Source of the DNA: Escherichia coli
Lineage (GTDB): Bacteria; Pseudomonadota; Gammaproteobacteria; Enterobacterales; Enterobacteriaceae
Length of the DNA stretch: 64,000 bases
Reading direction: 5' to 3' (one strand)
Assembly (NCBI RefSeq): GCF_041886205.1
Contig: NZ_CP169029.1
The notes beneath the pieces were generated by a model that saw only the letters and a list, made by a program, of their open reading frames with translations, did no database searches and was not told where the DNA came from. Every line of letters begins with the position of its first letter. The first letter of the stretch is position 1. Below, in pieces: positions 4,006 through 50,077 of the stretch. A program made the translations under genes and the position numbers.

Positions 4006-5148
4006 ATGGATTTTAATTTAAATGATGAGCAGGAACTGTTTGTCGCCGGTATCCGCGAACTGATGGCCAGCGAAAACTGGGAGGCCTATTTTGCCGAGTG
4101 CGACCGTGACAGCGTCTACCCGGAACGTTTTGTCAAAGCACTGGCGGATATGGGTATCGACAGTCTGCTGATCCCTGAAGAGCACGGTGGTCTGGACGCG
4201 GGGTTTGTTACTCTCGCCGCCGTGTGGATGGAGCTGGGACGTCTGGGGGCACCAACCTATGTGCTGTACCAGTTGCCGGGCGGGTTCAACACCTTCCTGC
4301 GCGAAGGCACACAAGAGCAGATCGACAAAATTATGGCTTTCCGCGGCACCGGTAAGCAGATGTGGAACTCAGCGATTACCGAACCGGGCGCGGGCTCCGA
4401 CGTGGGTAGCCTGAAAACGACTTATACCCGTAGAAATGGTAAGATTTATCTTAATGGTAGTAAGTGTTTTATTACCAGCAGCGCCTACACCCCGTACATC
4501 GTGGTGATGGCGCGCGACGGGGCTTCTCCGGACAAACCTGTCTACACCGAATGGTTTGTTGATATGAGCAAACCGGGCATCAAAGTGACCAAACTTGAAA
4601 AGCTCGGTCTGCGTATGGATAGCTGCTGTGAAATCACCTTTGACGACGTGGAACTGGACGAGAAAGACATGTTCGGTCGGGAAGGTAACGGCTTTAACCG
4701 CGTCAAAGAAGAGTTCGACCATGAACGTTTCCTGGTAGCCCTCACCAACTACGGTACGGCGATGTGCGCCTTTGAAGATGCGGCGCGCTACGCCAATCAG
4801 CGCGTGCAGTTTGGCGAGGCTATTGGTCGTTTCCAGTTGATTCAGGAAAAATTCGCCCACATGGCGATCAAATTAAACTCCATGAAAAACATGCTGTATG
4901 AAGCAGCGTGGAAAGCAGACAACGGCACCATCACCTCTGGCGATGCAGCGATGTGCAAATACTTCTGCGCCAATGCGGCATTTGAAGTTGTGGATAGCGC
5001 AATGCAGGTGCTGGGCGGTGTCGGGATTGCGGGCAACCACCGCATCAGCCGCTTCTGGCGTGATCTGCGTGTAGACCGCGTCTCCGGGGGATCTGACGAA
5101 ATGCAGATCCTGACGCTGGGTCGTGCGGTGCTGAAGCAATACCGCTAA
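4006..5148 (+). CDS. caiA: Crotonobetainyl-CoA reductase CaiA (acyl-CoA dehydrogenase family)
   Basis: 380-aa ORF with acyl-CoA dehydrogenase features; operon position. Confidence 0.95.
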
Positions 5149-5159
5149 GTCCGTGCGCT

Positions 5160-5250
5160 GCCTGATGCGACGCTGATGCGTCTTATCAGGCCTACGGGAG
5201 CACGAATGTAGGCCGGATAAAGCGTTTACGCCGCATCCGGCAGTCATGCG
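5160..5250. repeat. REP/BIME repetitive extragenic palindromic element
   Basis: GCCTGATGCGACGCTG...GCGTCTTATCAGGCCTAC...GTAGGCCGGATAAG...CGCCGCATCCGGCA palindromic units in the caiA-caiB spacer. Confidence 0.7.
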
Positions 5251-5258
5251 CTACATAA

Positions 5259-6494
<1,236 letters not shown>

Positions 6495-9611: not shown

Positions 9612-9696
9612 TCTTGCCGGATGCGACCTGGTTGCTGGATAAGATGCTACAACATCGCATCTGGCAAGCAGGACGCCCGGTATCAACGAGATAAAA

Positions 9697-13592: not shown

Positions 13593-14741
13593 TTACTTAG
13601 CGGTTTTACGGTACTGCTCAATTAACTCGATAAAGTGGTCGAACAACGGCGCGGCGTCGTGTGGACCAGGGCTGGCTTCAGGGTGACCCTGGAAGCTGAA
13701 CGCCGGTTTATCGGTGCGATGAATGCCCTGTAACGTACCGTCGAACAGGGATTTATGCGTGACACGCAGGTTTGCAGGTAATGTTGCTTCATCCACCGCA
13801 AAACCGTGGTTCTGGGCGGTGATCATCACCACGTTTTTCTCAACATCTTTAACCGGATGGTTGCCGCCGTGGTGACCAAATTTCATTTTGACAGTCTTCG
13901 CACCGCTCGCCAGCGCCAGCAGCTGATGACCGAGACAGATGCCGAATACCGGAATATCGGTTTCGAGGAATTTCTGGATGGCGGTAATGGCGTAATCGCA
14001 CGGGGCCGGGTCGCCAGGACCGTTGGAGAGGAAGATGCCGTCTGGATTCATTTTCAGCACATCTTCCGCAGAAGTTTGCGCCGGAACGATGGTCAGACGA
14101 CAGCCTCTGTCCACCAGCATCCGCAGGATGTTGCGCTTGGCACCAAAGTCATAAGCCACAACATGGAACGGCAGCTCGTCTTCTTTTTTCGCTTCTGGCA
14201 GGCCGCCGGTCAACGTCCAGCTCCCTTGTGTCCAGCTATAGGCTTCTGCGGTGGTCACTTCTTTTGCCAGATCCATGCCATTCAGACCTGGGAACGCGCG
14301 GGCTTTTTCTAACGCCAGCGCCGCATCCGGGTTATCGCCTGCGATAATGCAGCCATTCTGTGCGCCTTTCTCGCGCAGTAAACGCGTCAGCTTACGGGTA
14401 TCGATATCGGCAATCGCCACGATGTTATGGCGTTTCAAGTATGAAGAGAGATCTTCGGTATTACGGAAGTTGCTGGCAATCAGCGGTAGGTCGCGAATCA
14501 CCAGACCTTGTGCATGTACCTGAGAAGATTCTTCATCGGCGTCATTAGTGCCGACATTGCCAATATGGGGGTAAGTAAGAGTAACGATTTGACGAGAATA
14601 GGAAGGATCAGTGAGGATTTCTTGATAACCGGTCATTGAAGTATTGAAAACGACTTCCCCAACCGCCGAACCTGTTGCCCCTATGGCCCGACCGTGAAAC
14701 TGGGTTCCGTCTTCCAGAACCAATAGCGCTGACTTAATCAA
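13593..14741 (-). CDS. carA: Carbamoyl-phosphate synthase small (glutaminase) subunit CarA
   Basis: 382 aa; start assigned to the TTG at 14739-14741 (reverse complement of CAA), consistent with the remembered unusual UUG start; the track ORF begins at an upstream GTG. Confidence 0.93.
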
Positions 14742-14768: not shown

Positions 14769-14900
14769 TTTATTTGCATATTAATTCACAATGATGACGT
14801 AAATCAATGCAAATCTGCTTACCGACGAATTTCTGGCAAACGGCGGCATTCTGGAGATATGGGCGCTAAAAGTCAACTTAATGGCAGGATTTTTTATATT
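14769..14900 (-). promoter_or_regulatory. carAB tandem promoter/operator region with ARG boxes (ArgR operator at P2)
   Basis: Minus-strand reading TTGCATTGATTTACGTCATCATTGTGAATTAATATGCAAATAAAGTGAG just upstream of carA, matching the ARG-box palindrome pattern; AT-rich upstream region. Confidence 0.55.
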
Positions 14901-16184: not shown

Positions 16185-17105
16185 TTATGGCACCAGAGCC
16201 AGCACCTCAGCTACCCACTGCTGGAAGCCTTTTACATTCAGATCCAATGCCACCTGTACATTGGCTGGTTTGCCCAGGCAACCGTCGATATCAACCATCG
16301 TCGTGCCTGAGGTAAATTCGCCTTGAGTTTCTACCGCGACAAAACACGGCTTGAGGGTGAATAAGTCCGGGCGCACCAGCCAGGCGATGGCGCAGAGATC
16401 GTGCATTCGCAGACCGCTTTGCATACTGCCGCTACGGTAGTGGCTAAACAGGGCGTGGAGCATTTTTCCGGTGCGATTCAACTCCGGCAAAGTAGCGAGA
16501 TAGTCAGGGGTTAATATTGCCTGATTGGTGACATCCAGACCGCACATGACAATTTCGATTCCGCTACGGAAGACACAGGCAGCCGCTTCTGGATCGGCAG
16601 CGATATTAAACTCGGCGTTTGGCGTACAGTTGCCGCGTCCGGCAGAACCGCCCATGATCACCAGACGGCGAATATGCGGTTTGCATTCCGGGCATTGTGA
16701 AAGTAACAGCGCAATATTGGTTAACGGGCCAATGGCCACCAGGGTAACAGGCTCTGGTGCACGCATCAGGGCATCCCGAATAGCCAGGAATGCTGGTATC
16801 TCCAGTGGCTTTCGGTTGTGCTCAACAAAGTCGTAGCCAGCCATTCCCGATTCGCCGTGCACAGATGCTGCATCACGCGGTGCGCGTACCAGCGGTACGG
16901 CTGCGCCCTGGGCGAGCGGAATCTCCGCATTCCAGAAATGCAGCAGTTGCAGGGCGTTGCGGGTGGTTTTCTCAACCGAGACATTACCCGCGACGGTGGT
17001 CATCAGTTGCAGGTCGAGTTCGGGGGCAAAAATCGCGGCGGCAATGGCGACGGCATCGTCAATGCCGGGGTCAGTATCGAGGAAGATAGGTATAAGTTTT
17101 GTCAT
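16185..17105 (-). CDS. rihC: Non-specific ribonucleoside hydrolase RihC
   Basis: 306-aa ORF with the inosine-uridine nucleoside hydrolase DTDPGIDD motif; N-terminus slightly differs from the K-12 sequence as remembered. Confidence 0.9.
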
Positions 17106-17124
17106 TACTGTCTCTCCTGGCTTG

Positions 17125-18333
17125 TTAATTGCTCATGGCTTTGAACTCATCGCTGCTGATACAGATATCCGAAATATCTTTATTCGTCACCAGACGCGGG
17201 CTGAGTTTATCGCCTTCAACAAACGGTACTAGCGGGCAAAATTCCCCTGGAGACGCTTTATCTTCCTGCCACTGAATTTCAATGGATTCCGGCTCCATGC
17301 CTGGTTTCTCTGACTGAATGACTGTGCGGATATCCGTGGTTAACTGAAATGGCTCACACCCCTCCACATCAGTAAAAGTCGGCGTCAGATGACCATTCTT
17401 ACGTTCCTGCAGATAAAAAATGCGGCCATCGTGATAGGAAGGAATTACGTAGCAGGTATACATTTTACCTTTACTTAGCACTGGCTGAAGATAACTTGAG
17501 CCGCTGTCGATCAATTCAACCTCTTTACCCTTCCAGCGATAAACGTCTATTCCGTGACTACAGCAACCGCCTCGCCAATGGCTGACGATCTGCTTATATT
17601 CTGCATCCGGCTCCGGCGAGGTGATTTCCTGATAAGACGCAGGCGCATCAACAAAACGTTGTGTTGAGGGATCGTAAAGCCAGGTTTGTTCGGGGATATT
17701 GGGTCCAGCGGGTAACTCTTGCGGAATGGAAAGATCCGGATAACCATCAAAATTAACATCCTCCCATTGAGGCGTAAAAATGCTACAAGTGCCGATAGAA
17801 GCAGTATATAAGGTCTGTATCGGTTTCCCATCACGATATAATTTTATTGCTGAAATGACCGGAACATTATTACAGTCGATCGCTTTGGTAGGGTCGTAAT
17901 CGTCATTCACTTCCGCCACCAGCACCAGATCAATGCCCGGATCGTTTTTGGGTTTGTTATAGTGAAGTGCTATGGGGAAATGGTGTTTTTTATCGGCTGA
18001 AGTCCATACACCTTTTATCTCAATCGGTGAAACTTCAGCATCCCATTGACCAGAAAGTGTCTGTGCGCGCTCCTCAAGAAGCAGCCGCTCAACCTGGAGA
18101 GATCCTCGCAGAATTAATCGCATTTTTCTCTGATTGCAGGGTTCATAGCAATAGCTACCATGAAGGTCGTTGTTAATCCGCGTAATATCGACACTTACCT
18201 GCTTACCCGCAATCGTCCCGGTATAATTTCGATCCCAGAACGAAAATTCAAGCTGCGAAGCGCCATTGGCCGCTCCCAAACAAAATACAAAAGCCAAAAA
18301 TCCCGCCAATCCATAAGCTATCTTGCTCATCAT
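17125..18333 (-). CDS. Hypothetical secreted protein (402 aa, signal peptide, Cys-containing); accessory insertion between ispH and rihC
   Basis: Intact ORF with GGAGG Shine-Dalgarno 7 bp upstream of a tandem ATG ATG start; N-terminal hydrophobic signal sequence [25 protein letters not shown]; no recognised family; as I remember K-12, ispH and rihC are separated by only a short spacer. Confidence 0.7.
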
Positions 18334-18359
18334 CCTTGCCTCCGCAGAAGAGTACAGCT

Positions 18360-18392
18360 AAAAAAAAACCAGCAACGAGTGTGCTGGTTTTT
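18360..18392 (-). terminator. Rho-independent terminator after ispH (potentially bidirectional)
   Basis: A9 - CCAGCAACGAGTGTGCTGG - T5 hairpin between the ispH stop and the start of the 402-aa gene. Confidence 0.6.
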
Positions 18393-18405
18393 GAATGATT
18401 AATCT

Positions 18406-41143: not shown

Positions 41144-41231
41144 CTTTTTTAAATTGCCCCTAGATGAATGCACGGGCGGAGAGGAAATTCCCCTTCGCCC
41201 GTGTCAGTATAATTACCCGTTTATAGGGCGA

Positions 41232-48851: not shown

Positions 48852-49628
48852 ATGCTGATTCTTATTTCACCTGCGAAAACGCTTGATTACCAAAGCCTGT
48901 TGACCACCACGCGCTATACGCTGCCGGAGCTGTTAGACAATTCCCAGCAGTTGATCCATGAAGCGCGGAAACTGACGCCTCCGCAGATTAGCACGCTGAT
49001 GCGCATCAGCGACAAACTGGCGGGTATCAACGCCGCTCGCTTTCATGACTGGCAGCCAGATTTCACGCCGGAGAATGCTCGCCAGGCGATTCTGGCGTTT
49101 AAAGGTGATGTCTACACCGGCTTGCAGGCCGAAACCTTCAGCGAAGACGATTTCGATTTTGCCCAACAGCATTTGCGAATGCTTTCCGGCTTGTATGGCG
49201 TACTGCGCCCGCTCGATTTAATGCAGCCTTATCGTCTGGAAATGGGGATCCGTCTTGAGAATGCCCGAGGGAAAGATCTGTATCAATTCTGGGGAGATAT
49301 CATCACCAACAAGCTGAACGAGGCGCTCGCAGCACAAGGCGATAATGTGGTGATTAATCTGGCGTCAGATGAGTATTTTAAATCGGTGAAGCCGAAGAAA
49401 TTGAATGCCGAGATTATCAAGCCGGTGTTCCTCGATGAGAAGAACGGCAAATTTAAGATAATCAGCTTCTACGCTAAGAAAGCACGCGGTCTGATGAGTC
49501 GTTTTATTATTGAAAATCGGCTGACCAAACCAGAGCAACTGACTGGTTTTAATAGCGAAGGTTACTTCTTTGATGAAGCTTCCTCCAGCAATGGCGAACT
49601 GGTGTTTAAACGCTACGAGCAGCGTTAA
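48852..49628 (+). CDS. yaaA: Peroxide stress resistance protein YaaA (UPF0246)
   Basis: 258 aa, [15 protein letters not shown]. Confidence 0.93.
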
Positions 49629-49639
49629 GTTTGCAGTCA

Positions 49640-49770
49640 ATGCCGGATGCGGCGTGAACGCCTTATCCGGCCTACAAAAGCATGCAGATTCAATATATTG
49701 CAGAATTCACGTAGGCCTGATAAGACGCGCCAGCGTCGCATCAGGCGCTGAATGCCGGATTGTTACCCGG
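49640..49770. repeat. REP/BIME element cluster in the yaaA-yaaX spacer
   Basis: TGCCGGATGCGGCGTGAACGCCTTATCCGGCCTAC ... GTAGGCCTGATAAGACGCGCCAGCGTCGCATCAGGCG. Confidence 0.7.
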
Positions 49771-49780
49771 CATTTGTCAT

Positions 49781-50077
49781 TTAGCGGTGATGTTTGCCTG
49801 GACCATGACCGCCGTGATGATCATGATGAGCTTTCTTATGGTGACGCGGCGGTGGCGGCGGTCCGTGTGGGTGCCAGCGATTGCCTCGCCATTCATAATG
49901 TTGTTTCCACCAGCCGTGGTCGCGCCAGTGACCGCCATCCCAGTAATAACCGCGATTATCACGATCGCCTATCTGTAATTTTACTGACGGGACTAACGTA
50001 ATTTCCGCAGCCTGCGCTGCCATGGGAGCGACCAGAACCAGGGAAAGTGCGAGTACGATAGATTGCATCTTTTTCAC
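49781..50077 (-). CDS. yaaX: YaaX (DUF2502), secreted His/Pro-rich small protein
   Basis: 98 aa with signal peptide and [26 protein letters not shown] tail; syntenic position. Confidence 0.85.

Follow-up and report, generated by a model that had tools for sequence, protein, structure and literature searches.

The 64-kb window analysed here, by which we mean the whole stretch of E. coli DNA under study, was compared with MG1655 by BLAST. It covers, in reverse complement, the E. coli chromosome from fixB/caiT past thrL and the coordinate origin as far as trpR. It is ∼98.8% identical to K-12, several segments are strain-specific, and the strain is an E. coli other than K-12.

Between rihC and ispH, the window carries a 1.3-kb insert (17093-18405) that MG1655 lacks. 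Its ORF (17125-18333, - strand) encodes a 402-aa product with no Pfam match that RefSeq calls 'XAC2610-related protein'. The full locus was found in 9/5,426 complete E. coli genomes, and is 100% identical in LHM10-1, CP52E, and ET201. In the nhaR-rpsT interval, where MG1655 has IS1A, the window carries a chaperone-usher fimbrial operon (25085-31589) comprising a fimbrial subunit, a PapD-like chaperone, an usher, a second fimbrial-like protein, and a 473-aa ORF belonging to no family. A 4-kb segment reaching from the nhaA side to the hokC/sokC locus (34137-38184), also absent from MG1655, carries genes for a sulfatase and a Tsx-like channel protein, along with a 426-aa ORF that matches no Pfam family. 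An IS186 copy (38568-39936) occupies the MG1655 IS186A locus in the opposite orientation, and its BLAST pieces overlap by 38 bp at each end. Rfam matches at the gathering score included the ES003 sRNA (14789-14841, - strand), the sok antitoxin RNA at the hokC/sokC locus (38258-38410, + strand), tpke11 in the dnaK-dnaJ region (41144-41221, - strand), and the threonine operon leader (55000-55119, - strand). These four are K-12-type features and are expected.

Four intergenic spacers are the subject of this analysis. They are bounded by the following genes.

4006-5148, + strand, caiA, stop codon at 5146-5148
5277-6494, + strand, caiB, ATG at 5277
19358-19807, - strand, fkpB
19933-20427, - strand, lspA, stop codon at 19933-19935
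48852-49628, + strand, yaaA, stop codon at 49626-49628
49781-50077, - strand, yaaX
ending at 63738, + strand, yjjX, stop codon TAG at 63736-63738
stop codon at 63823-63825, - strand, trpR

ORF maps and the MG1655 annotation confirmed the flanking genes named by the earlier note at all four spacers. Its description of the spacers as operon-internal or convergent was also correct: caiA/caiB and lspA/fkpB are co-directional, while yaaA/yaaX and yjjX/trpR converge.

Descriptions of REP/BIME elements in E. coli go back about forty years. The earlier note had assigned palindromic REP units to these four spacers, and REP sequences are present in all of them, essentially where it had placed them. At the yjjX-trpR spacer the location stood, while the start lies at 63735 instead of 63739. 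The list of four sites proved accurate as far as it went and incomplete, since a fifth, decayed pair in the caiE-caiF spacer had been overlooked. The units, linkers, and associated hairpin are as follows, with bits denoting covariance-model scores.

5159-5195, + strand, site 1 z2 unit, 37 nt, 10 nt after the caiA stop codon, 60.0 bits
5196-5207, site 1 linker GGGAGCACGAAT, 12 nt, tail-to-tail, short-linker class
5208-5242, - strand, site 1 y unit, 35 nt, 34 nt upstream of the caiB ATG, 55.6 bits
19838-19872, + strand, site 2 y unit in the lspA-fkpB spacer, which is transcribed on the - strand, 58.9 bits
19873-19888, site 2 linker GATTTCGCAGCAATCT, 16 nt, tail-to-tail
19889-19925, - strand, site 2 hybrid unit, 7 nt after the lspA stop codon on the transcribed strand, 59.5 bits
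49641-49675, + strand, site 3 y unit, 12 nt after the yaaA stop codon, 58.5 bits
49676-49710, site 3 linker, 35 nt, long (L-class), tail-to-tail
49711-49747, - strand, site 3 z2 unit, 37 nt, 57.7 bits
49751-49774, 8-bp hairpin AATGCCGG-ATTGTTAC-CCGGCATT, 6 nt from the yaaX stop codon
63735-63769, - strand, site 4 y unit, 35 nt, tail variant GTAGGACGG, 55.6 bits
63770-63781, site 4 linker TTCGGTGCACGA, 12 nt, head-to-head, matching the Rfam naRNA4 linker
63782-63818, + strand, site 4 z2 unit, ending 4 nt before the trpR stop codon, 60.1 bits
9615-9627, + strand, site 5 y-unit head fragment TGCCGGATGCGAC, 13 nt, 3 nt after the caiE stop codon
9631-9666, - strand, site 5 decayed y/z2-hybrid unit, point-mutated, 20.4 bits, E 6e-4

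Eight full units are thus present as four inverted pairs: four 35-nt y units, three 37-nt z2 units, and one 37-nt y/z2 hybrid. Every REP unit is located in a spacer on the 3' side of one or more genes, and the only overlap with a gene is the 3-nt stop codon of yjjX. The distance from the upstream stop codon to the first REP is ≤12 nt at every site (caiA 10 nt, lspA 7 nt, yaaA 12 nt, trpR 4 nt, caiE 3 nt, and yjjX 0 nt, the overlap). The number of REPs published for K-12 is 584 (PMC3333891), equal to 8.05 per 64 kb, so the density here is the published K-12 average.

A REP is defined as an imperfect palindrome of 30–40 nt with a GTAG/CTAC foot and a stem mismatch, arranged in inverted pairs with linkers (PMC3333891). 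The types y, z1, and z2 used in that study follow the nomenclature of Gilson, Bachellier, and Hofnung. Pattern searches with the REP consensus, a check proposed in the earlier note, gave head and tail motifs far in excess of shuffle expectation. The head motif GCCKGATGCGRCG with ≤1 mismatch was observed 12 times in the window against 0.41 expected, the exact tail ATCMGGCCTAC 7 times against 0.04, and the tail TTATCMGGCCTAC with ≤2 mismatches 11 times against 2.1. None of the shuffles equalled the observed head or tail counts.

The palindromic REP consensus that the earlier note had called for was recovered on formal alignment of the eight units. Mean column identity was 87% and 23/37 columns were invariant. 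The CTAC foot (GTAG on the other strand; columns 34-37) and the stem mismatch, G9 C10 opposite T25 T26, were each invariant in 8/8 units. Both GTAG and the stem mismatch are required by TnpA-REP in vitro (PMC3333891). In the outer stem 98.6% of cells were paired, and the difference between y and z units there is a compensatory change from a G-C to a U-A pair. Each 35- or 37-nt unit is predicted to fold into an outer stem, an internal mismatch, an inner stem, a 4-nt loop, and an unpaired CTAC tail; the site 1 z2 unit, for example, has a predicted fold of -11.9 kcal/mol (z -5.95). The published REP/BIME definition was tested on these units and its elements were found, and the reading of the repeats as typical E. 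coli intergenic repeats holds.

A covariance model scored the eight full units at 55.6–60.1 bits. The next-best match was the decayed unit of site 5 (9631-9666) at 20.4 bits, leaving a gap of 35 bits, and the rest scored ≤11 bits except for opposite-strand self-matches. This separation is partly circular because the model was built from the same eight units that it scored; the shuffle-controlled motif counts and the Rfam models support their identity independently. Short queries containing the REP units of sites 2–4 returned medians of at least 30–39 matching places per genome in 5,425 genomes, with matching pieces capped at 40 per record. A generic inverted-repeat finder reported a single REP-related pair, the site 2 tails. 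REP stems are interrupted, and such a finder is therefore unusable as a REP detector.

These data bear on whether the palindromes could be products of chance or artefacts of a loose consensus. Isolated head matches with one mismatch do occur inside genes, at 14319, 19598, and 48217, and there are weak model matches such as 61040-61073. Yet eight units at 55–60 bits stand 35 bits clear of the next match, shuffles never reached the observed motif counts, and the units recur tens of times per genome in 5,425 genomes. The motif statistics, the alignment, and the model scores refute a chance origin, whose probability we consider negligible. The additional head and tail pattern matches at 14319, 19598, 48217, 25746, 61040, and 61402 lacked a partner half, scored ≤11 bits in the model, and were rejected; that at 61040 lies inside a 157-aa ORF and was dismissed as a REP. 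We conclude with high confidence that the eight units belong to the E. coli REP (palindromic unit) family and form inverted pairs (BIMEs) in untranslated spacers at gene 3' ends.

The window pairs share with the REP/BIMEs of K-12 a common consensus, the 35/37-nt lengths, the GTAG/CTAC foot, the stem mismatch, the inverted pairing, and tail-to-tail and head-to-head linkers. Sites 1 and 5 are 100% identical to their K-12 loci, and sites 2 and 3 have the K-12 architecture. In MG1655 coordinates, site 1 corresponds to 39116-39243, site 2 to 25702-25825, and site 3 to 5565-5669. At site 4, K-12 has three units, the last z1-like with a 6-nt gap, whereas two are present here.

BIME-1 consists of y and z1 with a long L linker, often containing an IHF site, in single copy, while BIME-2 consists of y and z2 with short linkers in tandem; atypical BIMEs are chimeras (PMC3333891). 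Site 1 (z2, 12 nt, y) and site 4 (y, 12 nt, z2) are single pairs of BIME-2 composition. The tandem arrangement of BIME-2 was not seen in the window, which has single pairs only; in other strains, site 4 can have three units and site 5 four. Site 2 (y, 16 nt, hybrid) contains a unit that has the G-C discriminating pair of y but is z2-like in its 37-nt length and 5-bp inner stem. The three-type K-12 scheme has no name for this y/z2 hybrid, which also occurs in intact site 5 alleles. The z unit of site 3 is a 37-nt z2 and not a z1, which by the published rules makes the pair an atypical (chimeric) BIME (PMC3333891).

Site 3 shares with BIME-1, or RIP, the conserved long linker and the single-copy pair, and differs in having z2 instead of z1. 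IHF-binding RIP/RIB elements, reportedly described in 1993 by Boccard and Prentki and by Oppenheim et al., are said to consist of y, a long linker with an IHF core, and z. Site 3 likewise occurs once, where two convergent genes end, with a conserved ∼35-nt linker and an IHF-like core. The K-12 counterpart of this locus presumably corresponds to the GenBank U00096 label 'RIP1'. The IHF-like sequence ATTCAATATATTG at 49688-49700 matches WATCAANNNNTTR with one mismatch, and the window holds 66 such matches versus 65 expected, so that as a pattern the match does not exceed chance. The site 3 linker passes the Rfam model ES036 (38.8 against a gathering score of 37.6). A sensitive search detected a median of 18 copies of the linker per E. 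coli genome, and it is therefore a family motif. The neighbouring hairpin (49751-49774) resembles a y unit without its inner stem-loop, aligns to the y half of naRNA4, and has a fold z of -6.0.

Rfam also recognised site 4. Positions 63738-63815 (+ strand) matched RF02564, naRNA4, over model positions 1-77 of 77 with 77.4 bits, the gathering score being 59.5. In composition, site 4 equals the REP325/naRNA4 unit, with y, a 12-nt linker, and z2 placed head-to-head. REP325, however, consists of six tandem repeats, while site 4 is one unit in a convergent spacer, varies between strains, and is known here from sequence. Sites 1–3 matched single-hairpin halves of naRNA4 at 31–47 bits, below threshold.

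Transcription has been reported for many REPs, and naRNA4, the RNA made from REP325, is an HU-binding RNA that condenses DNA (Qian et al. 2015, PMC4550694). Could the window sites be dedicated small-RNA genes, naRNA4-like at site 4 and ES036 at site 3, acting mainly in HU-mediated nucleoid condensation or another trans role? The two gathering-score matches (77.4 bits for naRNA4; 38.8 versus 37.6 for ES036), the HU binding of naRNA4, and the frequent transcription of REPs (PMC4550694) speak for it. The Rfam families are, however, themselves built from REP/BIME sequence, and the matches therefore restate membership of the repeat family. Moreover, sites 1, 3, and 4 showed no promoter-like site, the matches at sites 1–3 are halves below threshold, site 4 is absent or reduced to a single unit in ∼30% of strains, and the published phenotype belongs to the six-repeat REP325 locus and not to site 4. 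We consider dedicated small-RNA genes improbable.

Site 4 also affects the adjacent gene. Its y unit begins at 63735, not 63739, and therefore overlaps the yjjX stop codon. In the window yjjX ends ...VYQAL-TAG, with TAG inside the GTAGG foot of the y unit, whereas in K-12 it ends ...VY-TAA and an extra z2 unit with its linker is present. Because the REP supplies the stop codon, yjjX is three codons longer here than in K-12; the extension (63727-63738) is made of REP-adjacent sequence and the GTAGG foot. RefSeq annotates this 173-aa form, against 170 aa in K-12, in a strain with identical sequence. In strains without a REP at site 4, yjjX and trpR overlap by 7 nt.

Variation was examined in a set of 5,426 complete E. 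coli genomes. That strains differ in BIME copy number is known from earlier work (PMC3333891), and the between-strain comparison suggested in the earlier note revealed differences in copy number and in presence at four of the five sites. REP pairs are gained, lost, shortened, multiplied, and struck by IS621 between strains. The percentages given for sites 2–4 are rough, being derived from evenly spaced samples of ranked match lists.

The site 1 locus is nearly fixed, with 5,331 genomes (98%) uninterrupted at ≥80% query coverage. All four alleles aligned had two units and varied only by 11-bp indels, namely a head duplication and a linker deletion that removes 11 bases of the linker in some strains.

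At site 2, about one third of sampled alleles had both units at full length, about one quarter had an 18-nt internal deletion in the first unit (unit a), and in ∼40% internal deletions in both units had left a perfect 17-bp inverted repeat. The remnants in strain 042, TGCCGGATGCGGCCTAC and GTAGGCCGCATCCGGCA, are perfectly complementary after the loss of 18 and 20 nt. Strain MRY15-117 has the same two deletions (18 and 20 nt) and differs from the 042 remnants by one base; strain 98212 is an intermediate in which the first unit alone is deleted. The alleles form a series from full/full, through unit a minus 18 nt, to both units shortened with the 17-bp perfect inverted repeat. Similar 'mini-REP' hairpins occur at site 3 (49751-49774) and in phylogroup-divergent strains. 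It is conceivable, if unlikely, that the two arms of a BIME decay non-independently and are kept complementary by hairpin- or cruciform-templated repair. If so, collapsed REP doublets would be a stable and possibly selected end-state in which one long hairpin replaces two short ones. Parallel hairpin-skipping deletions at the same CG microhomology could explain the paired deletions equally well.

Site 3 was uninterrupted in 3,366 genomes (62%). In ∼25% of the sampled matches the pair was absent through a precise 112-bp difference, gained or lost as a block and bounded by the 10-bp repeat AATGCCGGAT (49639-48 and 49751-60). In ∼12% of genomes the site was broken at GTAG|GCC, an estimate of ∼626 genomes obtained by subtracting the 3,366 uninterrupted from the 3,992 with the linker. 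Strain SSGNw1 has no BIME at the equivalent of 49639-49760 and carries imperfect tandem copies of AATGCCGGAT beside the mini-hairpin. These tandem boundary copies suggest slippage at the boundary.

The 112-bp doublet resembles the REPINs of Pseudomonas in that an inverted REP doublet is the apparent unit of presence and absence. Pseudomonas REPINs and RAYTs, a subject of Bertels and Rainey in 2011, reportedly differ from those of E. coli in consensus and RAYT clade. Unlike REPINs, the E. coli pairs also build tandem arrays and chimeras. No cognate RAYT gene (TnpA-REP; yafM in K-12) was found in the 64-kb window.

At site 4, sampled genomes had 0, 1, 2, or 3 units in roughly 15%, 15%, 40%, and 25% of cases, respectively, and a few per cent were interrupted in the z2 tail. 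The pair in the convergent caiE-caiF spacer (9615-9666) is a decayed fifth BIME. The allele found here and in K-12 has a 33-nt deletion that removed the rest of the y unit and the linker, together with several point mutations. The remaining unit (9631-9666) has lost its CTAC foot (GCAAC) and is predicted to fold poorly (-4.2 kcal/mol, z -1.3). An intact pair occupies site 5 in ∼62% of complete E. coli genomes, some with two tandem pairs.

The interruptions inspected at sites 3 and 4, in one genome each, involve an insertion sequence. The natural target of IS621 is the 11-nt sequence ATCAGGCCTAC with a CT core (Durrant et al. 2024, PMC11208160). Three exact copies are present in the window, one in each z2 unit (5185-5195, 49711-49721, and 63808-63818). 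Since the bridge RNA of IS621 reads the z-type tail ATCAGGCCTAC, three of these eight REPs would be ready landing sites. IS621, a member of the IS110 family, was reportedly described by Choi et al. in 2003. In the one interrupted site 3 genome inspected, IS621 lies at GTAG|GCC in the z2 tail, at the CT of GGCCTAC. In the one interrupted site 4 genome inspected, that of strain 22-250, an intact IS621 lies at GGCCT|AC, again in the z2 tail. In both genomes the CT core borders the insertion on either side. The suggestion in the earlier note that REPs serve as IS target sites is thus borne out at two units, both z2 and both in other strains. The y units differ from the natural target in carrying ATCCGGCCTAC, a position-4 variant, and no insertion in a y unit was observed here. 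The 64-kb window itself has no IS621 copy.

An 80-nt junction of a z2 REP tail with an IS621 end was found in at least 1,881/5,426 genomes, with up to 28 matching places per genome (partial matches included), and IS621 insertions in REPs are therefore common across the species. Because the REP and linker halves are repeats, the junction queries (1,257 and 1,881 genomes) are not locus-specific, and for sites 3 and 4 themselves these numbers are upper bounds or genome-wide figures; for site 3, the ∼626 genomes obtained by subtraction are the better estimate.

Such variability raises the question of whether the pairs are selfish or neutral passengers, that is, REP doublets maintained and moved by RAYT whose effects on neighbouring genes are incidental and unselected. 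Polymorphism in presence/absence, copy number, and decay at four of the five sites is compatible with this reading: internal deletions in ∼65% of site 2 alleles, absence of site 3 in ∼25%, 0–3 units at site 4, and decay of site 5 here and in K-12. BIMEs are also cleaved and recombined by RAYT in vitro (PMC3333891). Since sites 2–5 tolerate deletion, decay, or loss in many strains, any host function there is arguably dispensable. Against this, site 1 is near fixation, being uninterrupted in 98% of 5,426 genomes, the units lie ≤12 nt from a stop codon and never in promoter-only spacers, and effects of REPs on mRNA decay and translation have been published (PMC12306157). We regard passenger status as plausible, though short of an even chance; it overlaps with the main explanation, that of REP family members paired in inverse orientation at the 3' ends of genes, and does not replace it.

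The placement of the pairs just past stop codons also calls to mind ordinary Rho-independent terminators of the upstream genes. The hairpins are GC-rich, and two of the sites are in convergent spacers. A terminator scan with a pattern requiring a T-run nevertheless gave no intrinsic terminator in the four spacers. Complete termination at the two operon-internal sites would shut off caiBCDE and fkpB-ispH, and the sequences belong to a dispersed repeat family and are not locus-specific. The terminator reading fails because of the missing T-runs and the two operon-internal sites, and we consider it very improbable.

For REP pairs acting at gene 3' ends, the following mechanism can be proposed. 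On the transcribed strands the pairs have predicted folds of -46 to -67 kcal/mol (z -3.4 to -8.2), and such stability is consistent with the classical role of REPs as exonuclease barriers. Once transcribed, the pairs would form very stable hairpins that block 3'-to-5' exonucleases and may thereby stabilise the upstream messages, namely caiTA, ileS-lspA, yaaA, yjjX, and trpR. The claim of the earlier note that these repeats can influence mRNA stability draws on published work on other REPs and may extend to the present ones. A REP ≤15 nt from a stop codon can reportedly make ribosomes stall and decrease translation (Liang et al. 2015, cited in PMC12306157); if this applies to the window genes, their translation may be reduced as well. 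As DNA, the REPs would be binding or cleavage substrates of TnpA-REP/RAYT, which is thought to spread and reshuffle the units. The z2/y pairs may bind gyrase or HU, and the long linker may bind IHF.

The pairs described here are known elements at known K-12 loci, present at ordinary density and behaving as the literature describes. Mildly new are the REP-borne stop codon of yjjX, the recurrent y/z2 hybrid, and the collapse of doublets into short perfect hairpins at sites 2 and 3. Annotators should avoid taking these spacers for terminators, sRNA genes, or small ORFs, and the naRNA4 and ES036 matches that Rfam reports here are REP-derived. The natural target of the IS621 bridge RNA occurs three times within 64 kb. 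Taken across strains, the sites provide a compact illustration of how rapidly intergenic spacers change, through loss, multiplication, internal collapse, and capture by IS621.
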